Source: Candidatus Firestoneibacteriota bacterium (GTDB lineage: Bacteria; Oederibacteriota; D2-FULL-39-29; JBDRBU01). From it: a stretch of DNA of 52,313 nt. The DNA lies in assembly GCA_043822305.1 (NCBI GenBank), contig JBDRBU010000039.1, positions 1-52,313 of the forward strand, given 5' to 3'. The position numbers and the translations under genes are program-made. Below are positions 15,253 to 46,038 of the stretch, one piece after another (positions within the stretch are counted from its first letter, which is position 1; each line of letters opens with the position of its first letter). The notes under the pieces are model-generated. The model did not search any database, was not told the DNA's origin, and worked only from the letters and a program-made list of their open reading frames with translations.

Positions 15253-15313
15253 TGATTTTCCATAATGTAAAATCAATATATTAGGAATAGTTGGTTGCAA
15301 AGCAACCAGACTA
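15253..15313 (+). repeat. ~60-bp structured dispersed repeat, copy A
   Basis: TGATTTTCCATAATGTAAAATCAATATATTAGGAATAGTTGGTTGCAAAGCAACCAGACTA; its TAG is the stop of the adjacent GlmU-like gene. Confidence 0.85.
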
Positions 15314-16570
15314 TGATTTCTTCTTTATCCAATAATTCCTATCGGACTTAGTTGTATCGTATAAATATCCCAACAATTCTTCCTCTCCCTTTGACATTTC
15401 TTTTTTTCTTCTCGACATAGACATCTTCGCGGTATCTAACATGCTTTTTAACCCATAACCTTTAAAAAACCTATTATTAAAAAACCAGGTAAAAGACGGA
15501 ATGTATTTTGGAAGAACACCTCCACTACCAACTAAATTACACATAATTCCGGTTATGGTTCCTGTGTTAAAATATGTTCCTATACTTGTTTTAGTATGGT
15601 CTCCAATAAAACAACCTACTTTTGTATCCTTAGAATCCATTAATTCTCCTTTCATATACAAAGAAACAGTAGTGTAATCATTTTTTAAATCACTATTAGT
15701 CGTTAAAGCACCTAGGTTTACCCATTCACCTATATAAGCATGTCCTAAAAATCCATCATGATATTTATTTGAATACCCGTGTATAATACTATCCTCAACT
15801 TCTCCACCTACCCGACAAACCGGGCCAAGAGCTGTCCCTGTTCTTATATTTGCTCCAAAAATCTGCGTTCCTTTGCCAATCGCCGTAGGGCCCTCTATTC
15901 TTGAATTCGGAAAAATAATTACATCTTCATCAATAATTATAGATCCACCATTAGTATCTAATGTTACAAAAGGCTGAATTTCTGCATTTTTGGCTATATA
16001 AACTTTATTTTTATCACCATAAATAACAGATTGTGGAGCAAATTTACCTTCAATGACTCCGCCTTTATTTATAAATTTAAAATCATCTTCAATCGCTCTT
16101 GGATTTTCATGGACTAAATTCCAAGGATATTCAATTAAATATGCCTCTACTTTTACATTTTTAATATTTATTTTAATCTGACTAAGTAACTGTTCAAAAT
16201 TTGCACCACCATATTTTGCAATATTTTGTTTGTTTACTCTAGCGTAAACAAGATCATCACCTGAGACACCAACCTCTTCTGTGCCATTTAATTCAAGTTT
16301 TGCATCAATAAACAGCCATCTTCCGTTTATAAACAAACAATCATCTTGTTTCAAAACATCTAAATTGTTAACATTAGATGCTCCTAACTTTTCTTTCATA
16401 TATGCTTCCAGATAATCACGCACAAAATAAGTAACCTTGACATTTTTAAATTTTCTTATGATTTTTTCAGCAAGATTAGTCTGTCCACATTTCAAATGAA
16501 AAACTGGCCTTAGATATGAAATGGGATACAAATTATCGAATTTCTTATCTTCAAAAAAACATATTTGCAT
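15311..16570 (-). CDS. GlmU-related putative sugar nucleotidyltransferase with left-handed beta-helix domain
   Basis: LYPI..RP N-terminus, INGRW, YPWNL, GGEVEDS, SNKYHDGFLGHAYIGEWVNLGA, SDLKN. Confidence 0.85.
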   Translation of the reverse strand: MQICFFEDKKFDNLYPISYLRPVFHLKCGQTNLAEKIIRKFKNVKVTYFVRDYLEAYMKEKLGASNVNNLDVLKQDDCLFINGRWLFIDAKLELNGTEEVGVSGDDLVYARVNKQNIAKYGGANFEQLLSQIKINIKNVKVEAYLIEYPWNLVHENPRAIEDDFKFINKGGVIEGKFAPQSVIYGDKNKVYIAKNAEIQPFVTLDTNGGSIIIDEDVIIFPNSRIEGPTAIGKGTQIFGANIRTGTALGPVCRVGGEVEDSIIHGYSNKYHDGFLGHAYIGEWVNLGALTTNSDLKNDYTTVSLYMKGELMDSKDTKVGCFIGDHTKTSIGTYFNTGTITGIMCNLVGSGGVLPKYIPSFTWFFNNRFFKGYGLKSMLDTAKMSMSRRKKEMSKGEEELLGYLYDTTKSDRNYWIKKKS

Positions 16571-16581
16571 TTTTTACCTCC

Positions 16582-19653: not shown

Positions 19654-19857
19654 TCAGATTCTAACAACATTTATGGCTTGTGGACCTTTAGCCCCTTGCG
19701 TAACTTCAAATTTAACAGCTTGCTCGGCAGCTAAAGTTTTAAACCCATCGCCTTGAATAGCAGAGAAATGCACAAATACATCTCCACCACCATCCTGTTC
19801 AATAAAACCATAACCTTTGGCTTCATTAAACCACTTCACTTTGCCTTGCTTTTCCAT
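19654..19857 (-). CDS. cspA: Cold-shock protein (copy 2)
   Basis: 64/67 residues identical to copy 1; RNP1/RNP2. Confidence 0.95.
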
Positions 19858-19898
19858 AACTTCTTTCCCCTCCTTTCTAACGCGATTTATTTATTACA

Positions 19899-22270: not shown

Positions 22271-22517
22271 ATTATTTTCCTTTATAATCTAAATTCCTAA
22301 ACTGATTATAACTATGATAACAAATTTACAATATCGATGTCAAAAGATTTATAACTTTTTTTTCAAAAGAGCAGATAAATAAATAATCTTATCCTCCCAT
22401 TTTTCCTACTTCAGCGGAACTTAGGATAGATAAAAGCAGTAAAATTTATCAACAATTTAGTTTTTTTTAGAGCCGACTTCTAGCACAGGCTCTTAAACAT
22501 GATTGTTACTGGCAAAA

Positions 22518-23267
22518 GATTCAATCCACGCCCCCGCACGGGGGGCGACAAAAAACTTTCCTCATCTTTTACTCTTGGGAAGTTTCAATCCACGCCCCCG
22601 CACGGGGGGCGACCTAATAGTTTCAATTTGGGATTATCTTTGAAGTGTTTCAATCCACGCCCCCGCACGGGGGGCGACTCGTTGTCGGGGCAATCTTAAC
22701 CCAACGGCAATGTTTCAATCCACGCCCCCGCACGGGGGCGACCTTTTCTTTTTCCGTTTTGTTTTTCTTGTTTATCGTTTCAATCCACGCCCCCGCACGG
22801 GGGGCGACTGGATATAAATACTGGCCGGATATTGTTTATTACGTTTCAATCCACGCCCCCGCACGGGGGGCGACTACTAACTACTGGACCGTGTGCAATT
22901 ACAGGAGGGTTTCAATCCACGCCCCCGCACGGGGGGCGACGTCAATATGTGGATATGGTCAAAAATCCTAAAACGTTTCAATCCACGCCCCCGCACGGGG
23001 GGCGACTGGTTAACTATAAAAAAATTATAGGTTAACCGTTGTTTCAATCCACGCCCCCGCACGGGGGGCGACCGTCCTGTGTATGTTGTTCATATATCCA
23101 AATAGGTTTCAATCCACGCCCCCGCACGGGGGGCGACCTATTTCACCTATTCCTCTACATTTCATAGAAGTTTCAATCCACGCCCCCGCACGGGGGGCGA
23201 CTTAGTAGTTATGTATTCTCTCTTGATTGTGTATAGTTTCAATCCACGCCCCCGCACGGGGGGCGAC
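22518..23267 (-). CRISPR. Type I-C CRISPR array: 12 repeats, 11 spacers
   Basis: 32-bp repeat GTCGCCCCCCGTGCGGGGGCGTGGATTGAAAC; spacers 32-34 nt; degenerate trailer repeat at 22518; repeat at 22712 is one base short. Confidence 0.98.
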
Positions 23268-23443
23268 TGTTATTTATATAGATCTTATTTTTTCAGTAAG
23301 TATTTCAAAGATCTTGCGATGTTGACCTATTATTATGATTATTTGGTTCCTATTTCTTCTATATCTTTTGATAATTCTGCAATTCATTTCCATTTTTACA
23401 TTTGCGAACCTCATGGGGTTTTTACAATAGATTAACATTCGCA
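23268..23443 (-). promoter_or_regulatory. CRISPR leader
   Basis: AT-rich non-coding stretch between cas2 and the first repeat; TGCGAA/TTCGCA inverted motif near cas2. Confidence 0.75.
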
Positions 23444-23734
23444 TTATATTAATAACGGCTCATCCAAAGATATTGATTCTTTGGCTCCGACATGTTCAAC
23501 TCTCCTCTTCCAATTAGATCCAAGATAATAAAATCTTATAGAATCTTTTTCTGGATCAATTATATTGCAAAGTCCATTCTTAAGTCTTGCCCATTGCTCC
23601 GGGTCCACATCACATTCAAAAACAGATAACTGCACCCTTTGTCCAAAGTTTTTGCAAGTTTTTGCGACTCTTCTTAATCTTCTTCTTCCTTCGGCATCCA
23701 TAGTGTTTACATCATAAGTAATTACGACCAGCAT
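23444..23734 (-). CDS. cas2: Cas2
   Basis: ITYDV, RRLRRVAK.C..FGQRVQ.SVFEC, DSIRFY. Confidence 0.97.
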   Translation of the reverse strand: MLVVITYDVNTMDAEGRRRLRRVAKTCKNFGQRVQLSVFECDVDPEQWARLKNGLCNIIDPEKDSIRFYYLGSNWKRRVEHVGAKESISLDEPLLI

Positions 23735-23737
23735 TTA

Positions 23738-24769
23738 TTATCTCCAAACATAAGCAGGATATCCATCTATTTCCCCGCGTATGCACCTTGCGAACAATAA
23801 TGCCTGATAAAAAAAGATTAGACCAATAGGCATTTTCTCGTTTAAATATAAATGCGTAATCTCTTCTTGTTTTCTTTTTTGATATTCTATTATCAATTCT
23901 TTTCTTGTTTTATCTGTCATCAGTACTGCACCATTTTCCATTTTCTCAAAACCATTTCCTTTTACCTGTTCTCTGTTAATAAGGTTTAATGCAACTCTGT
24001 CTCCAAGAAAACTTCTAAACTCTTCCATTAAATCAAGTGCAAGCCCGGGTCGACCAGGTCTGTCCTTATGCAGAAAACCAACATATGGGTCAAGCCCAAC
24101 CGTCTCAAGAGCAGACCTGCAATCATGCATGATTAGAGTGTAAACAAATGACAACAAGCAGTTTACATTATCTAATGGAGGCCTTCTATTTCTCCCGTTA
24201 AAAACAAATTCATCTTTTTGGGAAATGATTGCTTCATTAAAAACAGAAAAATATGTTTTTGCTGCATCACCTTCAATCCCTCGTATTTCAGCTTCGCTCA
24301 TTTTGTTTTTAAGTCTTTTAATGCTTATACTTAACTCATTTATTGCCCTGCCTACTTTATCCGCGTTTATCTTATCGGAATGATCCCTTACGACCCTGGA
24401 TAATACGGTGCGGGAATTATTTATTTTTGCCATAAGTATTTCTGATGCAATTTTTGTGCAATATCCAGAATTATCAGCCAATCTGTATTGTTCCCTCCTC
24501 AACAAAACATTACCACAAACCTCTCCCCGGACACTGGCAAGAAATTTTCCATTATCATTCAAATATGTTATTGCTACAGATTTTTCCGAACAATAACCCA
24601 TAAGATGAGGCGTTATTATAGTATTTCCAAAGCAAACAATACTACTGACTGCCAATAAAGGAAATTGTACTTTTGTTTTATCTTGTTTTTCCACAACCAC
24701 CGTCTCGCCTTCTTTATGCAAATAGGAGCCAGGAGTCGTAATATATATAGTGTTAAGATATTTTCTCAT
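23738..24769 (-). CDS. cas1: Cas1 (type I-C)
   Basis: MRKYLNTIY start at 24769 overlapping the cas4 stop; GNVLLRR.QY, RGIEG, RRPP, LALDLMEEFR. Confidence 0.96.
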   Translation of the reverse strand: MRKYLNTIYITTPGSYLHKEGETVVVEKQDKTKVQFPLLAVSSIVCFGNTIITPHLMGYCSEKSVAITYLNDNGKFLASVRGEVCGNVLLRREQYRLADNSGYCTKIASEILMAKINNSRTVLSRVVRDHSDKINADKVGRAINELSISIKRLKNKMSEAEIRGIEGDAAKTYFSVFNEAIISQKDEFVFNGRNRRPPLDNVNCLLSFVYTLIMHDCRSALETVGLDPYVGFLHKDRPGRPGLALDLMEEFRSFLGDRVALNLINREQVKGNGFEKMENGAVLMTDKTRKELIIEYQKRKQEEITHLYLNEKMPIGLIFFYQALLFARCIRGEIDGYPAYVWR

Positions 24770-25398
24770 TCCATCATTTTCTGAAAGTATTTGTCTGCTG
24801 AAACAGCTTTTTGTAATTTTTTTGGCATACAGTAGTTTAAAAAAGAGCATCTGTCGCATTTATTCTCTTCGTATTCTGCTTTTGAAGTAAATCCTTTCTT
24901 AATAAACTCATGTAATTCTACCGCCAACCTTGTTGTTTCTTTTCTCAATTCATCACTAAAGAAAACCTCTTCACGTCGTCTTGTTCTCCCGTAGAATATA
25001 TATCCTTTTTCTATTTTACAATTCATCATTTCCTCAAGGCAGATTGCTTGGGCACAAAGTTGAATTCTATCACAATTATCAGTCTTTGTCTTACCTCTTT
25101 TGTATTCTATGGGTGTTACAAGATCCACCCCTTTATCATTTTTGCTGTATTCAATAACATCTGCCTTGCCGATAAGTCCAAGATCGTACGACCTTATCGG
25201 CACATCTGTTTCAATTTTCACATCTGAATCGTGTTTTGATTTTCCTTTATGAACATTTTCATGCATTATCCTCCCTTCCGCTGTAAAAACATTCTCAAAC
25301 CAAATACTTTCAATGTGAATGAATGCACACTGCCTTTTGCAGTATGAATAATGCTGTATTCCGGATAAAGCAAGTAGGTCTTCATCATCGTAAATCAC
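24766..25398 (-). CDS. cas4: Cas4
   Basis: SGIQH..YC.RQ, G..DV.E, EYKRG, QLCAQ, C-terminal CxxC..C. Confidence 0.96.
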   Translation of the reverse strand: MIYDDEDLLALSGIQHYSYCKRQCAFIHIESIWFENVFTAEGRIMHENVHKGKSKHDSDVKIETDVPIRSYDLGLIGKADVIEYSKNDKGVDLVTPIEYKRGKTKTDNCDRIQLCAQAICLEEMMNCKIEKGYIFYGRTRRREEVFFSDELRKETTRLAVELHEFIKKGFTSKAEYEENKCDRCSFLNYCMPKKLQKAVSADKYFQKMME

Positions 25399-25415
25399 AA
25401 TTATTTCCCATTATG

Positions 25416-26516
25416 CTATTTATCATTCTTTGCCGCTTCAAGTCGCAAGCGAGCCATCCGTATTGATTCATTCAGTTTCTTTTCAAGTACTTCACGAGGC
25501 GGTAATTCTGTTAAATAATCCGCGACTCGTATACCGCTTTTTCCAAGTTCCAACAATTCCACCTGCTCATCGGATTTTCCTGCACAAAGAATCAGCCCAA
25601 GAGGATGCGATTCTCCCGGATTTCTCTCGTATTTATCCAACCATCGCAAATAAATTTCCATTTGACCTTTATATTCCGGTTTGAATTTATCCAGTTTTAA
25701 CTCTATGGCAACAAGTCTTTTTAAACCCCTATGATAAAACAGCAAATCCAGATAAAAATCATCTCCCCCTATTATCATACGTTTTTGTCTGGCAAGAAAC
25801 GAAAAACCCGTTCCTATTTCTAAAATAAATGCTTCAAGATCGCTCAATATTGCAGATTCAATATCTTTTTCCTGATAAGCGCCTTTAAGCCCCAAAAAAT
25901 CCAGAAAATATGGATCTCTAAATACAAGATCTGGCGTTAGTTTGTCCTCTTCACGCAGTTTGGAAAGTTCAATGTGGGCAAGTTTTTCCGGTTTTTTCGA
26001 CAGTGCTGTTCGTTCAAATAGCATACCGCCTATTTTTGCCCTCAGTGTTCTTACATTCCAACGCTCTATTCTGCACATTTCTGCATAAAAATCGCGTGCA
26101 AGTTGATCTTTAACCGGTAATATCTCTACAAAATGGCTCCAACTTAATTGTCGTGACAGTGTCACGACAATCTGTTCGATTGGGAAACATTCAGCAAATT
26201 TTACCATTCGCGCCAAATTGCGATCACTAAAACCATCACCATATAAAGGCATCAATTTTGCCGACAGTGTCGGCAAAATCTCCAATCCGTATTCTGCTCT
26301 TTTTTCTTTGAGTATTTCCCGTCTTATTCGGTCCCCTACATGCCAGTAAAGCATCGTTAATTCAGTATTAGCAAAGTAGGCCACCCGCCCGCGAGCAGAT
26401 TCTATAAGCCCTCGTATTTCGGATAAGATATTGCTGTTTGCAGGATTAAAAGCAGTGATCACCGCCATTTTCTTAATTCTAATATTCTTTTTACCTTCCC
26501 CTTCTATATTTTTCAT
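25416..26516 (-). CDS. YhcG/DUF1016 PD-(D/E)XK nuclease
   Basis: LYW.VG, LSWSHF, FRDPY.LDFL, G.GF.F..RQ, DLLFYH, IELK, GQM..Y, GLILC. Confidence 0.92.
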   Translation of the reverse strand: MKNIEGEGKKNIRIKKMAVITAFNPANSNILSEIRGLIESARGRVAYFANTELTMLYWHVGDRIRREILKEKRAEYGLEILPTLSAKLMPLYGDGFSDRNLARMVKFAECFPIEQIVVTLSRQLSWSHFVEILPVKDQLARDFYAEMCRIERWNVRTLRAKIGGMLFERTALSKKPEKLAHIELSKLREEDKLTPDLVFRDPYFLDFLGLKGAYQEKDIESAILSDLEAFILEIGTGFSFLARQKRMIIGGDDFYLDLLFYHRGLKRLVAIELKLDKFKPEYKGQMEIYLRWLDKYERNPGESHPLGLILCAGKSDEQVELLELGKSGIRVADYLTELPPREVLEKKLNESIRMARLRLEAAKNDK

Positions 26517-26537
26517 TTAACTCCCCGCATTTAAGGT

Positions 26538-26680
26538 AATATTTTTATGCATTATCCTACCTGCGATGCAAATACATTAAAAACCAAATACCATCAATAC
26601 AAATAAAAGTGTATTTTCTTTTGAAAAAAAGCGATGTTCTATTGAAGAAAGAGAAATTTATTCCTTATCATTAACCTCAT
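26538..26680 (-). pseudogene. Decayed duplicate of the cas4 5' end
   Basis: Frameshifted translation ISLSSIEH..FICIDGIWF.NVF...GRIMHKNI matches Cas4 LALSGIQH..FIHIESIWFENVFTAEGRIMHENV. Confidence 0.8.
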
Positions 26681-33096: not shown

Positions 33097-34947
33097 TTAG
33101 GTTCGGTCAAAAGGTATCTCCTTGTGCTTTTCTATCTTAGGAAACATCATACTATCTGCAAAAATATCCTGGAAACATGGTGAGGATGATAAATCAACAT
33201 ACTTTACATTTTTAGCAATTTCTTCTGCTTCTTTTCTTGAATCAACTGAGACTAATGCTTTTCTTGCTCCTTCTTCGGCTGCATTGCCACAGAATATTAT
33301 TTTTTCTAAACTTATTTGAGGAATTAAACCTATAGCCAGAGCTTTTTCTGCTCTAATATAATTACCAAAAGCACCTGCTATTAAAACTTCTTTTATTTCG
33401 TTAGCACCTATTCCTAATTCTTTCATTAGAATGGTGATACCGGCTAACATCGCCCCTTTTGCCAGTTGAATTTCCCTTATATCTTTTTGATTTAATGTTA
33501 TCTTTTTATCATCGTCTTCTACAAATACAAATTCATTTCCATTCTCATGAACCCTTATCCTTGATCTTAGTTCTTGAGGCAATATATCTTTTAACTCATC
33601 AGGGGATTTTATTCGACCAGTCACATCAACAATATTATTTTCTACCAGGGAAGCCATGGCATCAATTAATCCACTCCCACAAAATCCTCTTGGTAAAGTA
33701 TCTCCTATTGTTTTGTAGGAAATTTGACCATTGATAATATCTATTCTTTCAATTGCACCATTGGACGCTCTCATTCCATGTTTTATATGTGCTCCTTCAA
33801 AGGCAGGACCAGCCGCACATGATGCACAAAGTAATTTTTTACTATTACCCAGAACGACTTCACCGTTTGTTCCTATATCAATGGCTAACTTAATATCCTT
33901 ACTTTTATGTAAATCTGTGGCTAATATTACTCCCACAGTATCTCCTCCTACCCATCCTCCTATAATCGGGAAGACATTAACAAGTCCTTCTGGATTAATA
34001 TTTATATTAAGTTGTTTTGGTTTAATTCTAATAATACTTTGCCCTAATTTTGGTGTAAAAGGATAAACCGCCAGACTTGATGGTTCTACCTTTAAGAGCA
34101 AATGTTCCATGGTAGTATTGCCTGCAAAAACTACATCATAGATTTTATCTGGCATAATATCTGCTTCTTCGCAGGCCTCTGTAATTATTTTATTAATTAT
34201 ATGAATAATTTTATTGTTTAAATTCTTTAATCCATTTTTATTCTGGATACAAAAATCTAATCTAGAAATTACATCATCACCATATACAACCTGTGGATTC
34301 ATATCTGCTGAAACTCCCTTTATTAGACCAGTATTTAGTTCTACAAGAGTTCCAACCACAGTAGTAGTACCTATATCAAATGCCATTCCATATAATTCAC
34401 CGGTGGTATCTTTTGATTCTAAACTTACTAATTCTTCATTCATTATTATTGCAGTAATAAAACCTTTGCTTTTTTTTATAACATCTTTAAATGATTCTAG
34501 TTTTATTGATAGTTTTAAGTTTGATTTCCTGATTTTTTCTTTTAAAGAATGAACATTTTCAAAACTAAAAATTGTTTTTTTAACAGCTGGCTTTAAACAA
34601 ACCTGAGTAGCCATACCCGAATCTAAAATTTTTTGAGTTTGCAATCTTGAACTTCCCGGAATAGATATCACCACATTCCCTAAAATTTTAGTTCTACAGG
34701 CAAGTCTAATTCCTTTGGCCATTTCTTCTTTTGATAAAAGTTCTTGTTCAATATAATCCACAGGAGAAACATTACCCTCTATCTCAACTTTACATTTGCC
34801 ACATTTACCAACCGCACCGCATGGGAAATCTAAATTAATATTTGCTTCATGAATAGCAGCAGCAATAGTAATATTTTGATGGATATGTATTTTTTTACCC
34901 TCTGGCTGGAAAATAACTTTTATTTTACTCATTCCTTGACTTCCCAT
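33097..34947 (-). CDS. ASKHA-domain corrinoid reactivating ATPase (RACo/DUF4445) with N-terminal 2Fe-2S domain; start may be 34932
   Basis: CGAVGKCGKC...RLAC, DIGTTT, GNTTM, DIGTNGE, AAGPAFEG, AGAFG. Confidence 0.9.
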   Translation of the reverse strand: MGSQGMSKIKVIFQPEGKKIHIHQNITIAAAIHEANINLDFPCGAVGKCGKCKVEIEGNVSPVDYIEQELLSKEEMAKGIRLACRTKILGNVVISIPGSSRLQTQKILDSGMATQVCLKPAVKKTIFSFENVHSLKEKIRKSNLKLSIKLESFKDVIKKSKGFITAIIMNEELVSLESKDTTGELYGMAFDIGTTTVVGTLVELNTGLIKGVSADMNPQVVYGDDVISRLDFCIQNKNGLKNLNNKIIHIINKIITEACEEADIMPDKIYDVVFAGNTTMEHLLLKVEPSSLAVYPFTPKLGQSIIRIKPKQLNININPEGLVNVFPIIGGWVGGDTVGVILATDLHKSKDIKLAIDIGTNGEVVLGNSKKLLCASCAAGPAFEGAHIKHGMRASNGAIERIDIINGQISYKTIGDTLPRGFCGSGLIDAMASLVENNIVDVTGRIKSPDELKDILPQELRSRIRVHENGNEFVFVEDDDKKITLNQKDIREIQLAKGAMLAGITILMKELGIGANEIKEVLIAGAFGNYIRAEKALAIGLIPQISLEKIIFCGNAAEEGARKALVSVDSRKEAEEIAKNVKYVDLSSSPCFQDIFADSMMFPKIEKHKEIPFDRT

Positions 34948-34997
34948 AATGTAAATAAAATATTAGGAATAGTTGCCCGCATTAGGCGGGCAGACTA
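34937..34997 (+). repeat. ~60-bp structured dispersed repeat, copy B
   Basis: TGACTTCCCATAATGTAAATAAAATATTAGGAATAGTTGCCCGCATTAGGCGGGCAGACTA; its TAG is the stop of the PorV-like gene. Confidence 0.85.
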
Positions 34998-36416
34998 CAA
35001 TCTCTTTTTAATTTTTAAACTTAAATTCATAGTTGCAGAATATAGTTTTGACTCGGATAAAACTTCTTCAGTTTCGCCAAATAATGAAACTCCAGTTTCA
35101 ACATCAACAACTCTAATATTTATATAAAACTTGTCAGCCAATTTGCTTACACTTCCAACTATCATTTTTTCAACATTTAATAATTTACCAATTTCTACGG
35201 CACATTCAACTTCTGTACATCCAGTTTTCTGAAATGCCTGTTCTTTCAAAATCTCATGCATATTCGCTCGTTCTAAAACTAATAAATCCTTTGAATTTGA
35301 TAAACTTGTCCTGAGTAGATCTGAAATTATGCTTGTCTGAGATTTTGATACATCATTAGCAACCAGGTCAATAACGGCTACGGCTATTTTTTTTTCTACT
35401 GCTTCGGTTTTGATGATCCCTGTATGATTTAAAGACCCGGCACTACTATTAACTATTTCACTAGATTGAACTACCTGATTAACCTTTTGACCAAACGAAT
35501 AACCTAATGATACTCTATGCGTATATCCTAAATTTCCATATGGCACATAAGCATAATCTAAACTAAATCCACTGATATTAAAACCAACTCCTGCTGTAAA
35601 TCCAGAAAGCCCGTCATACTCTGCTATCCCTATTCTTGTTGTCCAACCAGCTCTTAGGGCAAAATAATTTTTCACCACCCAACTTTCTACTCCAATCCCA
35701 ATTTTTACATTATTATCATTCGGAATAGTTAAATCACTCACTAAATTAAACTCTGGAACAACTTTCCAATAAATTCCTGCTTTTAGATTAAAAGGAAGAC
35801 TTTCGTCAGTTCTTCCAAAATTTACAGAGGTTCCTAGATTAAAAGCACTAAGACCTAAAGAGAAATTTTCAAATATATCTTTGGCTAAAAGTCCTAAATC
35901 AATTGCAAAACTACTTGATTTCTCTAATTCAATAAAATTAACGATATACTTTACATTTAAGCCGTAGTATAATCTCTTATTAGATATCTTAAAATAATTA
36001 CTGTAAGATAAACCAATGTTTAAATCACACGCATTAAATGAACCTGTGTTTTCTCCTAAAACATTATAGGCATTTAAACTTCCACCATTTAAATAGATAA
36101 AATTAACTCCAAGAGTTCCTATGTCTTTTACTGGAAGTGCAAATGCAAAATGTTCTTCTGAAGTATCAATAAGCCAGACAAGATGCGAGGCAGTAATTTC
36201 TGGAAATTCTAAAGAGCCAAGCCCTGCTGGATTCCAGTTTATGGAATTAATATCGTCTGATAAACCAACATATGATTCCCCCAGACTAACAGGCCTTGCC
36301 CCAACTCCTATTTTTAAAAAAGAAGCAGCATAAATAGGGACAGACACCATTATTATTATGATAGCAAGTAAACAAATAGGGACAGCCCTTACTTTTTTGT
36401 TGATTTGATGAATCAT
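34995..36416 (-). CDS. PorV/UPF0164-like outer-membrane beta-barrel fused to a CsgG/HfaB-like domain
   Basis: Signal peptide; FLKIGVGAR...GE, WNPAGL, DYAY...LG.THR; C-terminal LER...ILKEQ...GC....CAVEIGKLL. Confidence 0.8.
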   Translation of the reverse strand: MIHQINKKVRAVPICLLAIIIIMVSVPIYAASFLKIGVGARPVSLGESYVGLSDDINSINWNPAGLGSLEFPEITASHLVWLIDTSEEHFAFALPVKDIGTLGVNFIYLNGGSLNAYNVLGENTGSFNACDLNIGLSYSNYFKISNKRLYYGLNVKYIVNFIELEKSSSFAIDLGLLAKDIFENFSLGLSAFNLGTSVNFGRTDESLPFNLKAGIYWKVVPEFNLVSDLTIPNDNNVKIGIGVESWVVKNYFALRAGWTTRIGIAEYDGLSGFTAGVGFNISGFSLDYAYVPYGNLGYTHRVSLGYSFGQKVNQVVQSSEIVNSSAGSLNHTGIIKTEAVEKKIAVAVIDLVANDVSKSQTSIISDLLRTSLSNSKDLLVLERANMHEILKEQAFQKTGCTEVECAVEIGKLLNVEKMIVGSVSKLADKFYINIRVVDVETGVSLFGETEEVLSESKLYSATMNLSLKIKKRL

Positions 36417-36504: not shown

Positions 36505-37937
36505 ATGAATATCCTGGAAAAATTAAATAGTATTCCTTCTAAATCTGGTGTATATTTATTTAAAGATAAAGAAGGCAATATCATTTATGTTGGAAAATCT
36601 GCTTGTTTAAAAGATAGAATAAAATCTTATTTTTCAGAAAGCGGACGATATGATTTAAAAGTATCTGCTATGATTTCTCAAATAAAAGATTTTGCATATC
36701 TAACAACATCAAATGAAATTGAAGCATTAATACTTGAAAACAAATTAATAAAAAAATACAAGCCAAAATATAATATTTTGTTTAAGGATGATAAAACATA
36801 TCCATATATTAAAATTTATTCAAATGAAGAATTTCCACATCTAAGTTTTACCAGAAGAATTCTTCCTGATAAGGCAATGTATTTTGGTCCATATGTAATT
36901 GGTTCTGTCCGAGAAATAATAAAAATTATTCAAAAACAATTCAAAATAAGAGATTGTTCAATATCTTTAGATAAAAAATTAAAAAGAGGATGCTTGAAAG
37001 AACAAACGGATTTCTGTAGTGCTCCTTGTATGGGAAAAATTACTAAAGAAGAATATAAAAAGATTGTAAAAGAAGTTATAGAATTCTTAAAAGGTAAACA
37101 AAAAAATTTAATAAACAAATTAGAAGAAAAAATGAAAAAAGCATCTAACTCATTACAATTTGAAGATGCATCATTATACAGAGACCAGAAAAATTTAGTT
37201 AAACTAATACAATCTCAAAATGAAAAAAATGTAAAGTTATGTAATATGGCAAAAGAAGAAAGCAAATTAATTGAAGTAAAAAAAGCAGAAACAAATCTAA
37301 GAGATATCTTAAATCTAACTAAAGAACCTAAAATTATAGAAGGAATAGATATATCAAATATATTCGGCGATAAAGCAACCGGTTCTGTTGTTAGATTTAA
37401 AAATGGCAAGCCCGATAAAAACGGATATAGAAAATTTAAAATAAAAGAAATTACTGGAATAAATGATACTGAAATGATTAAAGAAGTTGTAGAAAGAAGA
37501 TACAGGCGTGCCATAGAAGAAAAAACATTACCTGATTTGATTTTAATAGATGGAGGAAAAGGACAGTTGAATTCTGCTATTTTTGTATTAAAAAAATTAG
37601 ATTTAAGTATTCCTGTTATATCAATAGCAAAGAAAAATGAAGAAATTTTTATATCCGAAAAATTAGAGTCATTAAAACTTCCAAAAAATTCTTCTTCGTT
37701 ACACTTGCTTCAATATGTAAGAGACGAAGCACATAGATTTGCAATTAAATATCATAAAATATTAAGAGATAAAGAAATTAAAAAATCTATTTTAGACGAA
37801 ATACCAGGTATTGGGAAAAAAGAAAAACCTTGATATTGAAAAATATAAAAGATATAAATAATATAACAAATGATGAGATTAAAAAGACAAGAGGTATTCC
37901 AAAAAATCTTGTAGGAAAAATAATCAAAAAATTATAG
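36505..37937 (+). CDS. uvrC: Excinuclease ABC subunit C with a frameshift at 37816-37821 (ORF as given stops at 37833)
   Basis: GIY-YIG (GVYLF, YVGKS), UVR domain, DISN, DGGKGQ, RDEAHRFA; HhH continues in the -1 frame to TAG at 37935-37937. Confidence 0.92.
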
Positions 37938-37960
37938 GTCTAATTGCTTCGCAATTAACC
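37935..37960 (-). repeat. Diverged hairpin-only relative of the ~60-bp repeat
   Basis: TAG-GTCTAATTGC-TTC-GCAATTAAC versus TA-GTCTGGTTGC-TTT-GCAACCAAC (copy A reverse complement): compensatory GG/CC to AA/TT. Confidence 0.55.
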
Positions 37961-37992
37961 ATGACCATTATATTGGACACTAAGGAAAGTCA

Positions 37993-39429
37993 ATGAAAAT
38001 AAATAATTTACTAAATACAGTATACAATCTTTCTAAAAAAAAGAAACTAAAAGTTTATATAGTTGGCGGATTTATAAGAGATTATTTATTAAAAAAACCT
38101 CTTGAAGAAATAAAAGATTTAGATTTTGCTGTATTTGGTAATACTATAAAATTTGCAAAAGAATTTAGTAAAACTGTTAAAGGAAGTTTAGTTATACTTT
38201 CAGAGAAATTTCAATTAGTAAGGGTAATTGTAAATAAAGTTTATACTTGTGACTTTACTCATGGTAAAGGTAAAAATATTCTTCACGACTTAAAAGAAAG
38301 AGATTTTACAATAAACTCACTTGCTGTTGACATTAATCATAAAGATGAAATTAAAGAGTATATTATTGATAAATTTAACAGCAAAAAAGATTTAAAAAAG
38401 AAATTCATAAAAGAGATAAATAAAAAAATTTATTTTAAGGATCCCGTAAGGTTACTTAGAGCAATCCGTTTTTCTGCTACTTTGAAGTTTAATATTGCTA
38501 AAAAGACAAAAAACCACATAAAAGAATTTGCTAATCTAATAACATATTCATCGAGAGAAAGAATTAGAGATGAATTGTTTAAAATTCTTGAAGTTAACAA
38601 CAGTTTTAAATATATAAAATTATTAGATAAATTAACTCTTTTAGAAAATATTTTTCCAGATATAAAAACCATGAAAGGAGTAGAACAACCAGGCTATCAT
38701 CATTTAGATGTCTGGGGACATTCATTAGAAACATTAAAAAACTTAGAACTTATTATAAAAAAAATTGATCTTAATTTACCTCAAAATATTAAAGAAAATA
38801 TTTGTAATCATTTAAATAAAAAAATTGGTGGGTTTTGCAAATTATCGTTATTAAAACTAATTAGTTTATTCCATGATATTGGAAAACCAGAAACAAAATT
38901 TGTTGATAAAGATGGCCATACACATTTTTATTATCATGAAAATGTAGGAATGAACAAGTTTAGCAAAATAGGCAGGGAATTGAAATTAAGTAATAAAGAA
39001 ATAAAGATCGGAAAAATAATCATAAAAAATCATTTAAGAGTTGGCTATCTATGTGATTTAAAAAAAATTACCAAAAAGGCCGTTCGTAAATTTTTAAGGG
39101 ACTGCGGAGATTTAACTATTGATGTCTTATTGCTCTCATTATCAGATAGACTTTCTGCAAAAGGTGTAAAAGTAGATGAAAAAATCATAAATGAACATAA
39201 GAAAGTAATAGAGAAACTTTTTGTAGAATATTACAAAGTAACCATTTCAACTCCACTTCCAAAACTTATAAATGGCTATGACCTAATGAAGAAGTTTAAT
39301 TTAAAACCATCCCCTCTTATCGGAGCTTTATTAGATAAGGTAAAAGAAGCGCAAGAATTAAAAAAGATTTCAACAAGAAAACAAGCATGGGCATTAGTAA
39401 AGTTGGCAATTGGGGCAAAAATAGCTTGA
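37993..39429 (+). CDS. Class II tRNA nucleotidyltransferase with HD domain (probably CC-adding)
   Basis: VGGFIRD, DLD, ERDFTINSLA, DPVRLLRA.RF, ERI..EL, HDIGK. Confidence 0.88.
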   Translation: MKINNLLNTVYNLSKKKKLKVYIVGGFIRDYLLKKPLEEIKDLDFAVFGNTIKFAKEFSKTVKGSLVILSEKFQLVRVIVNKVYTCDFTHGKGKNILHDLKERDFTINSLAVDINHKDEIKEYIIDKFNSKKDLKKKFIKEINKKIYFKDPVRLLRAIRFSATLKFNIAKKTKNHIKEFANLITYSSRERIRDELFKILEVNNSFKYIKLLDKLTLLENIFPDIKTMKGVEQPGYHHLDVWGHSLETLKNLELIIKKIDLNLPQNIKENICNHLNKKIGGFCKLSLLKLISLFHDIGKPETKFVDKDGHTHFYYHENVGMNKFSKIGRELKLSNKEIKIGKIIIKNHLRVGYLCDLKKITKKAVRKFLRDCGDLTIDVLLLSLSDRLSAKGVKVDEKIINEHKKVIEKLFVEYYKVTISTPLPKLINGYDLMKKFNLKPSPLIGALLDKVKEAQELKKISTRKQAWALVKLAIGAKIA

Positions 39430-40715: not shown

Positions 40716-41804
40716 TTAGGTGCCTTTATTGAATAACCACTTAAATTCGCTTACTATTGATTTAACTACATTTTCCTTAATACCAGGTAATACATTAAAT
40801 GTATAGGTTTCTATTTCTATATGTCTATCAGGTTTAGTAGCTTTAGATAAAAAAGACTTGTTTAGAAGAAAAGATGTTGAATTCTTGCTTTTAAAATGAA
40901 GAGGTACATGAAAGTGTATCCGCCATTCCCCACAAGGGTTTTCTTTAATAGCCGGGAGCAGATCAACAAATTTTAATTTAACTCCATCAAAAAATACTCT
41001 TGTTTGATGTAAATAAACATTATCCATGAAAGGTAATAAAATATCCTGTTTATTATTGCAAGAACATGGCCATCTAAGTGCAGATGTAATCTGGATTTTA
41101 GGGACAGGAATTTTTAACGATTCTAATTTAGTAATTGTTTGTAAGGGATCTTCAAAATTACAAGCGAAATGACATGTATCTAAGCAAATTCCTATAAATT
41201 CCATAATTTTTTTATGCCCAACAAGTTTTAACTTCTTCCAGAATTGTATAATATCTTCGGTTGATTCCAAATAGCAATCCGGTTCAGATTCGATGGCTAA
41301 TATTATTTTCTTTCCGGTTTTATTTGCTAATTGATAAAAATATTCACCACACTTAATAATATTATTAATAGCTTTATCGGGCAATATTTTACCATAGGTT
41401 ACTGGTAGAGTACTAATAGAACCAGTCGTATCTTCGGGTAACAGTTTTATTAATATATTCCCGAGTAATTTTGTATATTCAAGTCTTTTTTGTGTTGACC
41501 AATCTGGTTGATATACTTTTTCCCTAACCGGTTTACTATGAAAATATCCATATGGAAATCCATTAATAGTAAAGACATACATTCCATGCTCACGAAGATA
41601 CTCTTTGAAATATTTAATTTTTGTAATTAATTCTGTGGCTGCTCTTTTAGATAAACGAAGTCCTAACCCAAAAGGTTTATCTGGAGAAATAGAATTTTTA
41701 ACAGCTGTAGTATATTTTTTAATGGAATGAAAATTTTCTTTCCAGGTTTCTCCTGGATGTATGTTCAAACAATAAGTTAAATGTGTTCCCTTTTTCCAAT
41801 GCAT
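40716..41804 (-). CDS. eboE: EboE (xylose-isomerase-like TIM barrel)
   Basis: HLTYCLNIHPGE, GLGLRLS, TINGFPYG.FH, VY.PDW, YLHQ, WRIHFHVP, EIETYT. Confidence 0.92.
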   Translation of the reverse strand: MHWKKGTHLTYCLNIHPGETWKENFHSIKKYTTAVKNSISPDKPFGLGLRLSKRAATELITKIKYFKEYLREHGMYVFTINGFPYGYFHSKPVREKVYQPDWSTQKRLEYTKLLGNILIKLLPEDTTGSISTLPVTYGKILPDKAINNIIKCGEYFYQLANKTGKKIILAIESEPDCYLESTEDIIQFWKKLKLVGHKKIMEFIGICLDTCHFACNFEDPLQTITKLESLKIPVPKIQITSALRWPCSCNNKQDILLPFMDNVYLHQTRVFFDGVKLKFVDLLPAIKENPCGEWRIHFHVPLHFKSKNSTSFLLNKSFLSKATKPDRHIEIETYTFNVLPGIKENVVKSIVSEFKWLFNKGT

Positions 41805-42931
41805 ATTTTATGTTTTTTCATCTCTTTTATTGATTCCAATATTATTTTTTTGGGTAATTCCTGTATATTGATTTGTTTCCCAAATCCATCTGGCATAGGT
41901 ATGCTCAAATTGCCACCCAGATGTTCGCGAAATTGTTCTAATCCTTTATATATTGTTTTATATTTTAAAGCCGGATGCCATAGTTTAATCCCGCATTGCT
42001 CCATGGAGTAACACACATATTCACAATCGGATTTTTTTATCAATCCTAATCGGGTAGCACAATGTAAATCTAAAGCAATGCCAATTCCTACGGCTTCACC
42101 GTGTCGCAACTTATATTTGGAGAGACTTTCTAATCTATGTGCAGACCAATGACCAAAATCAAGTGGTCGGCTTAAACCAAATTCAAATGGGTCACCGCTG
42201 TTTTTTATATGATTAATATGTAGTCTTGCACATTTATAAATCATTTCTTCCATTATTTTCTGATCTCGATTAAATAATTTCTTTGCATTTTTAGAAAGAA
42301 AATCAAGAAAGATTATATCTTTTATAATAGCTACTTTAAATGCTTCAGAAATACCACTAATCCAGTCGCGCTGAGAAAGAGTTCGTAAAAAATTATAGTC
42401 GTTTATTACTCCAAATGGAGGATAAAAAGTTCCATAATAATTTTTAATCCCAAACTGGTTTATTCCATTTTTAACCCCAACACCTGAATCAGCCTGTGAA
42501 AGAACAGTTGTTGGAATACGAATCTGCCTTAATCCACGATGGGTAATAGTAGCAGCAAAACCAACAGCATCTAAAACAGCACCTCCGCCTATAATCATAA
42601 CAAAAGAATGCCTGCATAAATGAGATTTAAGGATAAGTTTATTTATCTTTTCAATAGACTTCATCCCGTTTTTTATTTGTTCGCCACCTTGGACTAAATA
42701 AGGATCAGCAACTAAATCAACATTCTTTCTATACTTTTGAGACCATTTTATTATGTTTTTTACTAAATAGTTATTGCCAGGGATCAGTCCTTTATCAATA
42801 AATACAATTATTTTGGATTTTTTATCTTCAGGAAGTAAATTAATCAGACTCTTATTCGTCTGGCTAAAAATATCTCTTGTAAAAATAACATCATAAAAAA
42901 ATTTAATATTTAATAGCAGGTTTTGTTTCAT
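41777..42931 (-). CDS. eboD: EboD, 3-dehydroquinate-synthase-like sugar phosphate cyclase
   Basis: GGGAVLDAVG, PTTVLSQADSGVGVKNG, DPFE.G..RPLDFGHWSAH, HGEAV. Confidence 0.9.
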   Translation of the reverse strand: MKQNLLLNIKFFYDVIFTRDIFSQTNKSLINLLPEDKKSKIIVFIDKGLIPGNNYLVKNIIKWSQKYRKNVDLVADPYLVQGGEQIKNGMKSIEKINKLILKSHLCRHSFVMIIGGGAVLDAVGFAATITHRGLRQIRIPTTVLSQADSGVGVKNGINQFGIKNYYGTFYPPFGVINDYNFLRTLSQRDWISGISEAFKVAIIKDIIFLDFLSKNAKKLFNRDQKIMEEMIYKCARLHINHIKNSGDPFEFGLSRPLDFGHWSAHRLESLSKYKLRHGEAVGIGIALDLHCATRLGLIKKSDCEYVCYSMEQCGIKLWHPALKYKTIYKGLEQFREHLGGNLSIPMPDGFGKQINIQELPKKIILESIKEMKKHKICIGKREHI

Positions 42932-44187
42932 GTTTTCAAAATCTTTTTAAACTCACGAGAAAGCTCAAGCAAATTTTTTGGTTTTTTATGTAATTTAAAA
43001 TCGGAAGCCCAACAACATTTTGATTCTGCATCAGATATCCCGTGTGACCCTTTTATTTCCTTCGACCAAAAAAAGAGTTCGCATGGATCATATCCTGGTT
43101 TATTGTGAATATCCACATGTTTAGCAAAATCTGGAGGAATGTCCGAGTTGTCCCACCATGGATACGCAAACCAAGAATTCGGTTCAGCAATTAGAATAAT
43201 ATCGCCTGAACGAGAATGGGCTAACCCTGATTTCTTTTTTTCTTTGTTACTAAGAATTTGTCCAATTCCGGATATATTTTTAAAAATATCAACAATACGA
43301 GATTTATTCAAATCTTTTCTTACAACAATATGAGCGATCTGATGATCAACAACAGCAAAGACACTGCTTGTGTATAGGTCCGGATAACACATCCCCTTTA
43401 CATTTCGTGTATTAAATAATCCTTTCTCTCTTAAAATCCGGTTGGGGAAAATAGTTTTATTTACTTGTCTCATGGCATAGTCGCTAAATATCAATACATT
43501 GTAATCATATTCTTTTGATTTTTGAATTAAATTTATAAGTATTTTTTTTAATTGAGTAAAAGATTTTTTTGCTTTATTAGAATTTGGCCCGCTCTTTTGT
43601 AGTTCATAATCCAAGTGCGGCAAATAAGTTAAAACTAAATCAGGCATTTCTTTTTTCATTAATTCTATAGTTGCTTCTGCTATCCATTGTGAAGATTTTA
43701 CCGAAGCTAAAGGTCCCCAGTAATTTAAAAGATTAAAAGGTCGTTTTAAACTTTTACATAGATCCGGATAGATATTAGTAGGCATTGAAAAACAATCTGA
43801 AATCATCCCGCCCTGGTGTTTATGAATAGGTGCGGGCGATAAAATAATATCCGAATCTAATCCTAAACTTTGTTGCCAGAAAATTTGAGCTACTTTTTTA
43901 CCCGATTTTCTAAAACTCTCCCATATTCTTCGTCCATTGATCAGAGAAGAGGATTGCTCCCAAAAAAATACTTTATCTAATTCTCGTAAATAAAACCCAT
44001 TCCCAACTATCCCATGTTTACTTGGTAATTCAGCTGTTTTAAATGTAGCTTGAACAGTACAAGTGAGAGATGGAAAAACGCTTTCAATTGGATTAAATAT
44101 TAATCCTTCGATTTCATCTCCATTATTATTCTCAATCAGGAAATCATATCCTAAGGCAGCTATTTGAATAACAATAATTTTATCCAT
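42928..44187 (-). CDS. eboF: EboF-like alkaline phosphatase / nucleotide pyrophosphatase family protein
   Basis: FPSLTC.VQ.T, HGIVGNG, YLPHLDY, DHQIAH, VDIH.KPGYDP.ELF, KGSHG; ATG at 44187. Confidence 0.88.
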   Translation of the reverse strand: MDKIIVIQIAALGYDFLIENNNGDEIEGLIFNPIESVFPSLTCTVQATFKTAELPSKHGIVGNGFYLRELDKVFFWEQSSSLINGRRIWESFRKSGKKVAQIFWQQSLGLDSDIILSPAPIHKHQGGMISDCFSMPTNIYPDLCKSLKRPFNLLNYWGPLASVKSSQWIAEATIELMKKEMPDLVLTYLPHLDYELQKSGPNSNKAKKSFTQLKKILINLIQKSKEYDYNVLIFSDYAMRQVNKTIFPNRILREKGLFNTRNVKGMCYPDLYTSSVFAVVDHQIAHIVVRKDLNKSRIVDIFKNISGIGQILSNKEKKKSGLAHSRSGDIILIAEPNSWFAYPWWDNSDIPPDFAKHVDIHNKPGYDPCELFFWSKEIKGSHGISDAESKCCWASDFKLHKKPKNLLELSREFKKILKT

Positions 44188-44191
44188 AAAT

Positions 44192-45142
44192 CTAACTTCC
44201 CTCAAATTTATAACTCAATAGTAAACTTAAAAACCAGAGAGCATATAAGATTATAGCAAACTGAAGCATATTAGGTAAAGCAATTAAAATAAAAGCTGAT
44301 TGAAGTAAAATTAAACTTCTGATTAAGGAAGTAATTTTACCTGTCACAATAACTTGGGAATATTTAATTATTAGAATATTTACTATGATGAGAATAGAAC
44401 TTAACACACCCAGAATTGAAAAACCTGTTCTAACCATTATTAATAATAATCCAGAGGCAATAACACCATTGGCTATTAAAATCAGTATTTTTGATGGTAT
44501 TTTTTTGACTTTCCATAATGCAAACAAGATACTAGGAATAGTTGGTTGCGAATGCAACCAGACTACAACTTCTTTGTAAGCAACTGCTGAAATAATGGCA
44601 ACATAGCCAGTCTCAATTATAGCTATTAGTATTACTAAATCCGGTAATGCTGTTAAATTTTCTGAGGCTCCAAGTATAATATTCATCCCCCGACATAATC
44701 CCATAACCATAAATCCTAATACTGGAGATATTTTGCGAACAACACCGTTATATAAAAATATTAAAACAATCAATATAATAGTTACAATAAAAGTATAATT
44801 ATTTAACAACTTACTTATAAATAAAGATATAAAGATTAATATAAAAGTAACAAACAAAACTGATGAAGGATTTATTATTCCAGCAGCAAGAGGTCTTGAT
44901 GGTCTTTCTAATTTATCTTGTTTAATATCAAACAAATCATTAAGTAATATTCCGGACAAGTAAAGACAAACAGATATAGTCATGAGTAAGAATAAATTAG
45001 AATATTTATTTTGATTGGTTAGGAGATTCCCTATTAAAAAACCAACTAATACATCTCCCGGTAATGTAAAGATATTCGGTAATCGTAATAATTTAGCCCA
45101 AGATTCTATTTTTTTTAAATACATTTGATTATGGGAAGTCAT
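44192..45142 (-). CDS. eboC: EboC UbiA-family prenyltransferase
   Basis: LRLPNIFT..GD, LND.FD...D..ERPSRP, MGLCRG.N; multiple TM segments. Confidence 0.88.
   Translation of the reverse strand: MTSHNQMYLKKIESWAKLLRLPNIFTLPGDVLVGFLIGNLLTNQNKYSNLFLLMTISVCLYLSGILLNDLFDIKQDKLERPSRPLAAGIINPSSVLFVTFILIFISLFISKLLNNYTFIVTIILIVLIFLYNGVVRKISPVLGFMVMGLCRGMNIILGASENLTALPDLVILIAIIETGYVAIISAVAYKEVVVWLHSQPTIPSILFALWKVKKIPSKILILIANGVIASGLLLIMVRTGFSILGVLSSILIIVNILIIKYSQVIVTGKITSLIRSLILLQSAFILIALPNMLQFAIILYALWFLSLLLSYKFEGS
44506..44565 (+). repeat. ~60-bp structured dispersed repeat, copy C (in frame within eboC)
   Basis: TGACTTTCCATAATGCAAACAAGATACTAGGAATAGTTGGTTGCGAATGCAACCAGACTA. Confidence 0.85.
45128..45141 (-). 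repeat. 14-bp left arm of the repeat at the eboB/eboC junction
   Basis: TGACTTCCCATAAT, identical to the first 14 bp of copy B. Confidence 0.6.
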
Positions 45143-45978
45143 CGTTGATATTCTGATACAGGCACAGGTGTAAGATTAAATTGAGGTTTCCAGTTAGGAG
45201 AATGACTGTATAAACTCATGGCATTGTCATGAACTAATTTATTAACAACTTTTTCACTATGACCATCTTTAATCAGGTATTCAACAACTTTTATTAGAGA
45301 AACAGGATCAGAAACACCCCAATCTGCTGAACTATTTACAATAAGTTTATCAGCTCCAAAATCCTTAACCATATTAGATACCCTTGATGGATTTAGTTTT
45401 GAATAAGGATAAACTGTTAAACCACAAAAACATTCTGTTTTTAAAGATATGGGCAGACTATCTTCTGTGTTATGATCAATTACAATTCTTTTTTGATTAA
45501 CTCCTTCTGCTTTGATTATATCTGTAATAATTTTTGCTCCCTCACATTTCGGTTTATGAGGTAGATGTATAATAACTGGCATTTTTCTTTTTTCAGCCAG
45601 AAGCAGTTGTTTGCGAAATACCATAATTTCATTTTTTGTATTATTATTAAGTCCAATTTCTCCAAGGGCAACACAACGAGGATGCTCAAGATATTCGTCA
45701 ATTCCTGCAAGTACTTCATCAGCTAATTTTATATTTTCTGCCTCTTTGGGATTTACAGAAATAGCTGCATAGTGGTCTATTCCAAACCGTTTAGCTCTTA
45801 CTGTTTCAAATTCTAATATAAGTTGAAAATAATCAAAGAAAGTTCCAGCATACCGTCTTTCACTTCCAAGCCAGAATGAAGGTTCCACACACACACGAAT
45901 ACCAGCATCAGACATGGCCTGATAATCATCTGTTGTGCGTGAAAACATATGAATATGCGGTTCTATAATATTAATCAT
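45139..45978 (-). CDS. eboB: EboB TatD-family hydrolase
   Basis: PHIHM.SRTTDDY, EPSFWLG, NPKEA, GEIG, DHN, NSSADWGVSDP. Confidence 0.92.
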   Translation of the reverse strand: MINIIEPHIHMFSRTTDDYQAMSDAGIRVCVEPSFWLGSERRYAGTFFDYFQLILEFETVRAKRFGIDHYAAISVNPKEAENIKLADEVLAGIDEYLEHPRCVALGEIGLNNNTKNEIMVFRKQLLLAEKRKMPVIIHLPHKPKCEGAKIITDIIKAEGVNQKRIVIDHNTEDSLPISLKTECFCGLTVYPYSKLNPSRVSNMVKDFGADKLIVNSSADWGVSDPVSLIKVVEYLIKDGHSEKVVNKLVHDNAMSLYSHSPNWKPQFNLTPVPVSEYQR

Positions 45979-46038
45979 AGTCTGCCCTCATAAGGTGGGC
46001 AACTATTCCTAATATCTTATTTACATTATGGAAAGTCA
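45978..46038 (-). repeat. ~60-bp structured dispersed repeat, copy D (inverted)
   Basis: TGACTTTCCATAATGTAAATAAGATATTAGGAATAGTTGCCCACCTTATGAGGGCAGACTA on the minus strand; contains the peptidase stop and the eboB RBS. Confidence 0.85.

Follow-up and report, generated by a model that had tools for sequence, protein, structure and literature searches.

A small hairpin repeat enriched at native stop and start codons in a Candidatus Firestoneibacteriota genome

In this study, we analysed a dispersed, non-coding repeat of 56-64 nucleotides (nt) in the genome of an uncultured Candidatus Firestoneibacteriota bacterium (GenBank assembly GCA_043822305.1), with particular attention to contig JBDRBU010000039.1, which was taken in its entirety (52,313 nt) and is hereafter called the window. 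The repeat is a real family whose copies carry a covarying 3′ hairpin, were inserted without target duplication and keep the reading frame where they lie within genes. They stand directly before native stop codons and before ATG start codons far more often than expected from background positions. We tentatively favour single-strand cut-and-join by an enzyme acting in trans as the way in which they spread. The source assembly (2.15 Mb, 31.6 % GC, 125 contigs) is 96.8 % complete; it is labelled G000 where genomes have to be told apart, the relatives named below being G002, G004, G008 and G010.

The window holds five full copies and one probable remnant, F1 and F2 being two of the subfamilies described below:
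15253 to 15313, plus strand: full copy, subfamily F1, 61 nt (covariance model)
34937 to 34997, plus strand: full copy, F1, 61 nt (covariance model)
37937 to 37992, minus strand: full copy, subfamily F2, 56 nt (profile search and covariance model)
44506 to 44565, plus strand: full copy, F1, 60 nt, in frame within eboC, to which it adds 20 codons
45128 to 45141, minus strand: probable 14-nt left-end remnant at the eboB-eboC junction
45978 to 46038, minus strand: full copy, F1, 61 nt, co-oriented with the genes (covariance model)

The four full copies listed by an initial annotation of the window were all recovered; they scored 72-78 bits with the covariance model and the next-best unrelated match 18 bits. 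A site that it had read as a partial copy (37935-37960) turned out to be the full F2 copy. The 14 bases at 45128-45141, its second partial copy, do supply the TGA stop of eboB and probably derive from the element, but they are not significant alone (E 4.9); in G002 the same junction is a plain stop followed by ATG.

The genes that adjoin or contain these copies are the following:
15311 to 16570, minus strand: GlmU-like gene, stop from the element (TIGR03991 above cut-off)
34995 to 36416, minus strand: PorV/PorQ-family gene, stop from the element (NF033709 above cut-off)
36505 to 37937, plus strand: uvrC, with a frameshift near 37820
37993 to 39429, plus strand: CCA-adding/poly(A) polymerase family gene (cca), start codon abutting the element
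44192 to 45142, minus strand: eboC-like UbiA prenyltransferase gene with the in-frame copy (NF035940 best match, below cut-off)
45139 to 45978, minus strand: TatD-family gene of the ebo cluster, named eboB in the initial annotation
46026 to 46847, minus strand: papain-family C1 peptidase gene, stop inside the element

Most copies in the window form gene junctions, as had been proposed for all of them, the exception being the copy in frame inside eboC. The copy at 15253-15313, upstream of acpP, immediately precedes the old TAA stop of the GlmU-like gene, to which its first three bases on the minus strand give a TAG (15313-15311). The copy at 34937-34997, upstream of a gene with a RACo domain, likewise gives the PorV-like gene a TAG (34997-34995), three codons ahead of the old stop. 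That at 45978-46038 contains the TAA of the C1 peptidase gene (46028-46026); its final base doubles as the A with which the eboB ATG begins, and its hairpin arm has a GAGG a short way upstream, in line with the start signals ascribed to it in the initial annotation. The stop codons ascribed to the element thus hold for these three genes and only in part for uvrC, of whose stop the G alone is element-derived: the open reading frame (ORF) as assembled ends at 37833 after the frameshift, and the downstream frame stops at 37935-37937. Read on the plus (sense) strand, this F2 copy provides that last base as well as a TAAGGA Shine-Dalgarno sequence, and the cca ATG abuts it with zero gap. The uvrC frameshift itself lies at a run of A (37810-37835), removes the C-terminal region and may be an assembly error or real.

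In the whole genome, an iterated profile gave 52 full-length matches at E<0.01 (reversed genome: 2, best E 1.1), and with a covariance model trained on 43 copies there were 71 matches at E≤0.01. Of 48 sequences picked up by a structure-aware pattern, one was false and removed; the remaining 47 copies measure 56-64 nt and represent 41 distinct sequences. Subfamilies are told apart at the hairpin foot, i.e. F1 (GGAA then TAGT, end GACTA), F2 (GTCA then TGGT, end GACC), FB (TACT, end GAGTA) and F3 (TGCA), the last being located within the loop of another repeat of this genome, a repetitive extragenic palindrome (REP) of the GTAG type. Copies occur as head-to-tail arrays, nested in one another and in REP loops, some contain other small repeats, and tails and hairpins have been exchanged among subfamilies. 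The GTAG REP is itself abundant (56 near-exact copies counted), and the loop of several copies houses either a further hairpin or an F3 element. One F1 copy carries in its hairpin an insert of about 210 nt with inverted ends (contig C34, 20670-20885), which is flanked by a 9-base direct repeat and is probably a separate MITE (miniature inverted-repeat transposable element).

The family is restricted to one small order. Among 98 other genomes of the phylum, the covariance model found one or two matches in four, all of one sister family, and a search with the tail pattern revealed more copies in relatives than the model did. G004 has two small families (six hairpin-bearing copies plus a truncated one, and six loci) and G010 a few copies; there, the same tail precedes a different hairpin, nested in other repeat remnants and off codons, and the tail is therefore the shared part and the hairpin exchangeable. 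A scan of genome contigs gave two matches, both in Candidatus Firestonebacteria, and the pattern search gave none in viral contigs and six in metagenome contigs, all of the tRNA-side or tail-only type known from relatives; among phages and plasmids, nothing beyond partial, AT-rich matches was obtained (E 0.4). At four loci of relatives (L014, L015, L103 and L104), the 5′ half of tRNA-Ala has been duplicated and, with the tail module behind it, lies upstream of the intact tRNA; this unit is tandemly repeated in L103.

The copy at 45978-46038 illustrates the structure of the element:
45978 to 46005, minus strand: 3′ hairpin, made up of a foot (4 bp) and an upper stem (7 bp), with a G bulging from the 3′ arm
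46006 to 46038, minus strand: tail stem-loop, in which TGACT pairs with the five bases preceding the hairpin

This copy terminates at the foot of its 3′ hairpin, and its tail helix closes an AT-rich loop containing a conserved motif. Over the family, the 3′ hairpin pairs in 95.3 % of 468 cells, whereas slid controls drop to 24-39 %, and 8 of its 11 pairs vary on both sides, a score reached by 0 of 500 shuffles; these counts are inflated by kinship of the copies, yet four different stem sequences occur at one pair. The covarying hairpin with its bulged G, noticed in the initial annotation, is thus upheld, and the right end of the element is set by the stem foot, not by sequence. No covariation was found for the competing left hairpin that had been drawn (366 of 500 shuffles reach its score), but a different helix of 5 bp does covary, in which the first five bases of the element pair with the five that precede the hairpin. 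The comparison covered 62 distinct tails, taken from this genome and its relatives, of which two are probably spurious. All of them are paired at positions 4 and 5, G-T wobbles included; at positions 2-3, 19 tails have Watson-Crick pairs and 40 have tandem G.A/A.G. T:A is the terminal pair of 51 tails and C:G that of 5 (one of these spurious), the switch to C:G being seen in relatives; six further copies with C:G occur in G004.

The element would accordingly consist of two back-to-back stem-loops with both ends at stem feet, i.e. a dumbbell if circularised. Tandem G.A pairs are stable, and we infer that the folded strand is the one starting TGAC because the wobbles and the G.A pairs are stable only there; the wobbles of the 3′ hairpin alone (three G-T, one A-C) are not enough to tell which strand folds. 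In the alignment, neither end is the complement of the other, i.e. there are no terminal inverted repeats. A promoter was also considered, as F2 can form TTGACT-16-TATAAT, but other subfamilies do not preserve the -10 box and such a role could only be a side effect.

Comparison with relatives indicates that the element is a mobile insertion without target duplication, and the initial proposal of a non-autonomous mobile element is borne out by empty orthologous sites, by tandem and nested copies and by in-frame copies within genes. Empty sites were found at four places: (i) a transglutaminase-like gene on contig C71 carries two in-frame 57-nt copies, the first being a clean 19-residue gap in all 10 aligned orthologues (12 relatives matched; one without the locus and one with an internal stop were left out) and the second a gap of 17-23 residues; (ii) the glmU-acpP junction lacks the element in all four relatives retaining the gene order; (iii) no element precedes cca in any of 11 relatives, three of which have a 4-base uvrC-cca stop-start overlap; (iv) in G004 and G008, a copy lies in the T-loop of a duplicated 3′ end of tRNA-Arg, and the neighbouring intact tRNA shows the site with nothing duplicated. 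In eboC, the insertion point is where the resemblance to the G002 orthologue is lost, the alignment showing no clean 20-residue gap. The three in-gene copies (57, 57 and 60 nt) all keep the frame, and the element is therefore not spliced out; for this reason, and as no Rfam family matched at gathering score, a self-splicing intron was rejected.

Placement relative to codons was assessed on 52 hand-curated loci, with tandem or nested copies merged and with F3 copies in REPs and left-end-only fragments excluded. Junction positions were scored after in silico removal of the element, using simple ORF calls as gene calls; kinship among the copies means that the 52 loci are not entirely independent. 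A native stop follows the junction immediately at 10 of 52 loci (9 without C41:3225, whose TAG comes from a neighbouring half copy), and an ATG does so at 9 of 52. Over a background of 171,095 non-coding and gene-end positions, the corresponding values are 0.90 % and 0.97 % (p 4e-11 for native stops, 2e-9 for ATG). This is more than a preference for triplets: flanking stop triplets are real stops in 10 of 30 cases (6.8 % expected) and flanking ATGs real starts in 9 of 9 (27 % expected). The GTAG REP of the same genome, taken as control, adjoins a native stop in 0 of 56 cases and precedes an ATG in 0 of 56; it supplies a stop at 4 of 56 sites versus 25 of 52 loci for the element. Copies whose end reads TAAGG on the sense strand precede an ATG at 8 of 13 loci, as against 1 of the other 39 (Fisher p 1.4e-5). 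Orientation matches that of the genes at 41 loci and opposes it at 11, stops being supplied in both orientations. An effect on translational coupling is plausible, with statistical support from this placement.

The mechanism that we favour, at somewhat short of even confidence, is single-strand cut-and-join by an HUH-type enzyme acting in trans. The TGAC strand of this non-coding, non-autonomous element would fold so that its ends lie side by side at the stem feet, and a trans enzyme, most likely an HUH/Y1-type nuclease-ligase, would lift it out as a single-stranded dumbbell circle and join this circle into new sites without target duplication. Insertion in this genome would favour the narrow stop-start zone of operons, where the element would survive because its ends rebuild the junction: they offer TAG on one strand and TGA on the opposite one, a final A restoring a split ATG and, in one subfamily, a TAAGG Shine-Dalgarno sequence six bases before the ATG. 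Beyond the folded strand, we infer the circle, the enzyme class and the share of the enrichment owed to targeting as opposed to selection. The genome has six Y1 genes and a multi-copy insertion sequence (IS) of IS200 type that could act in trans. One of the six Y1 proteins is the TnpA of that IS, which is present at the ends of four contigs (C64, C2, C86 and C87) and breaks the assembly; the six are encoded on contigs C64, C51, C100, C81 (two) and C68.

Several observations weigh against this mechanism. No Y1 gene is flanked by the element, either among the six of this genome (nearest 14 kb) or among the 17 of four relatives, whose assemblies are incomplete; three one-mismatch tail matches in two of these 17 loci were judged to be chance. 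The ends of the resident IS200 element are unlike those of the repeat. The left flanks of the repeat are variable, unlike the fixed targets of IS200/IS605, words of 4-5 nt that lie 5′ of the left end and are matched by a guide at the hairpin foot, and they disobey the guide rule of PMC8266576. The foot and 3′ end do covary as in this TnpA-REP rule (GTAG-CT, GTGG-CC, GTAC-GT; PMC8266576), but plain stem pairing yields the same pattern. Both orientations occur relative to the inferred leading strand (36:16, a crude estimate in which at least two contigs look miscalled), and no circle or excision was seen. The related elements of G004 lie within other repeat remnants and not on codons, and boundary targeting may therefore be peculiar to this genome. 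Finally, the tail helix is less secure than the 3′ hairpin, the alignment of this genome alone giving it one compensatory change and 67.8 % standard pairs.

The search for candidate movers near element copies in this genome gave no Y1, integrase, reverse transcriptase or GIY-YIG gene, so that the expected clustering around a Y1 or tyrosine recombinase gene was not observed. Membership in the REP system with its REP-associated tyrosine transposases (RAYT), suggested initially by GTAG at the hairpin foot, is not supported, since the tag is not conserved and the element flanks none of the Y1 genes; the RAYT-like Y1 proteins of the genome all fall below the NF047646 cut-off. On one metagenome contig, a tail copy lies at a distance of about 330 bases from a Y1 gene, but that gene has short end repeats of its own. 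No TnpB was above cut-off in the genome, the IS110 transposase PF02371 had no match in the 96.8 % complete, 125-contig assembly, and the Y2 transposase PF04986 had none either, but controls gave none.

Selection without targeting is the best of the alternatives, although we hold it to be rather unlikely. Under this explanation, the element would insert widely with a loose AT-rich preference, copies in spare DNA would be deleted and copies bearing a stop or ribosome-binding site retained; retained copies may tune translational coupling, and spread may be partly by recombination between copies. A survival filter predicts that the Shine-Dalgarno variant sits at starts, as seen above (8/13 versus 1/39), and the frame kept by all three in-gene copies and the shuffling of tails and hairpins between subfamilies fit equally. 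It accounts poorly for the GTAG REP, which bears a TAG and yet shows neither codon placement (0/56 and 0/56) nor comparable stop supply (4/56 versus 25/52), and for the flanking ATGs, which are real starts in every case.

Unlikely, too, in our estimation, is a bolder form of targeted insertion, namely an undescribed single-strand integration system that reads translation boundaries, in which stop-specialised and start-specialised subfamilies would each carry the signal that they displace and move as a 60-nt dumbbell circle closed by tandem G.A pairs. If true, it would be a minimal, scar-free means of DNA insertion at gene junctions.

A tyrosine recombinase using the folded single strand as a double-stranded site, with exchange of one strand at targets resembling the circle junction, appears doubtful. 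Integron attC and CTX-phage attP are precedents for recombination of a folded single strand. When joined, the ends of the element fall within an unbroken duplex that has extrahelical bases; many F1 sites resemble the tandem junction, with TA to their left and TG(A) to their right; and the tail is similar to a XerC half-site. The genome encodes XerC, XerD and two further tyrosine recombinases, but the ends lack RYYYAAC/GTTRRRY boxes and miss the Xer crossover position, inter-arm spacing varies by up to about 8 nt, and F2 sites are unlike the F2 junction. The substrate role put forward initially is further undermined by the dif-like arm, which varies at its inner bases, and by the integron integrase model TIGR02249, whose cut-off was reached by none of the four of five tyrosine recombinase matches scanned (the fifth is below the Pfam cut-off). 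A Xer dif/pdif site, which has a XerC arm, a 6-bp spacer and a XerD arm at fixed spacing, was rejected on the same inner bases, the variable loop length and the lack of a XerD-type arm. Elsewhere in the genome, contig C94 (14266-14880) encodes a 204-residue tyrosine recombinase consisting of the catalytic domain only, and contigs C81 and C95 carry two dif-like sites with good XerD arms.

Least probable of all is an RNA route, in which the element would be reverse-transcribed into place with ribosome position as guide, in the manner of IIB1 group II introns found at start and stop codons (PMC12584367): codon-exact placement, the 41:11 orientation along genes and the presence in this genome of a reverse transcriptase and of a group II intron one base after a start codon speak for it, but both orientations occur at stop codons, the frame is kept by every in-gene copy, there is no intron domain or Rfam match, and the sole reverse transcriptase found adjoins Avd, i.e. 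belongs to a diversity-generating retroelement. That retroelement (contig C65, 2935-5947) comprises Avd, the reverse transcriptase and an upstream FGE-sulfatase-like target gene, and the intron (L099:1245-1910, contig C32) is without ORF.

Other features of the window were recorded. An ebo-like cluster (40716-45978) encodes EboE, dehydroquinate synthase-like, phosphodiesterase, EboC-like and TatD-family proteins, the TatD-family query having matched only one of 12 relatives. A group I intron match (Rfam RF00028, 64.7 bits) lies at 7838-8126 within the 23S rRNA gene. A CRISPR array of 12 repeats with cas2, cas1, cas4, cas7, csd1, cas5 and cas3 (type I-C-like) occupies 22516-32864, a YhcG/DUF1016 gene sitting between cas4 and cas7. 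Finally, a 196-nt segment is present in two copies (6317-6512 and 19667-19862) that are 87 % identical, with a GTAG REP nearby at 6755.

For the question of how REPs, Rickettsia palindromic elements and similar tiny repeats insert, this family is useful in several respects: its ends are exact, its targets are not duplicated, two of its helices covary, and its preference for native stops and starts is absent from a second repeat of the same genome. Targeting and selection can therefore be tested against each other, 60-nt oligonucleotides and one genome's six Y1 proteins being sufficient for the purpose. Annotation is affected as well, since the element introduces false ATGs upstream of genes (acpP, RACo gene) and additional peptide loops.

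Among known systems, REPs come closest in habit. They are small dispersed hairpins, mostly between co-directional genes (PMC3733652, PMC6006769, PMC8266576), whose ends often supply TAG stops and some of which lie in frame within genes (PMC3733652). Like GTAG/CGTC REPs, bacterial interspersed mosaic elements (BIMEs) and REPtrons, as portrayed in those papers, the element is a bulged dispersed hairpin, found mostly between co-directional genes, with tandem and composite forms, and as in REPs its many copies keep structure over sequence. It differs in having no conserved GTAG/CGTC tag, some of its subfamilies being without TAG; the GTAG seen at its foot takes its G from the flanking base in 4 of 25 copies ending GACTA and is incidental. 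It has instead an obligatory 35-nt tail with its own helix, its arrays are direct and not inverted, no transposase flanks it and, unlike the genome's own GTAG REP, it is placed exactly on native stop and start codons.

Rickettsia palindromic elements are hairpin repeats found in frame within working genes. The element shares with them the in-frame hairpin insertions, but it is shorter, only 3 of 52 loci are of this kind, and the typical copy has stops in most frames and lies on gene boundaries. PATE is a non-autonomous IS200/IS605 derivative. Like such derivatives, the element is non-coding, has subterminal hairpins (two) and causes no target duplication, and a TnpA of IS200 type is resident; unlike them, it ends at the stem feet and not 10-20 nt away, has no fixed target word and bears no likeness to the resident IS ends. 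Integron attC sites have RYYYAAC/GTTRRRY boxes at the foot, with crossover at G|TT; they share with the element a folded single strand, an extrahelical base, structure kept over sequence and stop codons at the foot, but the element has no R boxes, no cassette array and no IntI, and it interrupts housekeeping operons. IS900-type elements of the IS110 family reportedly insert between the ribosome-binding site and the start codon. With these and with start/stop-codon IIB1 introns the element shares the habit of settling on translation signals and restoring them, but those are kilobase elements with a ribozyme or recombinase, whereas it is 60 nt long and unspliced. The codon preference of IIB1 introns is described in PMC12584367 and the recognition of bulged hairpins on single strands by Y1 enzymes in PMC8266576, and Rickettsia palindromic elements are mentioned in PMC3733652. 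A MITE was ruled out by the lack of terminal inverted repeats and of target-site duplication.

The element thus behaves like a REP or PATE-type repeat, yet does not answer to the definitions of REP, PATE-type, MITE, attC or dif. The literature searched, outside subscription journals and IS databases, gave no description of this family. Hairpin repeats supplying stop codons are already in print (PMC3733652); what the present analysis adds comprises the empty sites, the exact ends, the tail helix, the controlled codon-boundary statistics and the subfamily split.

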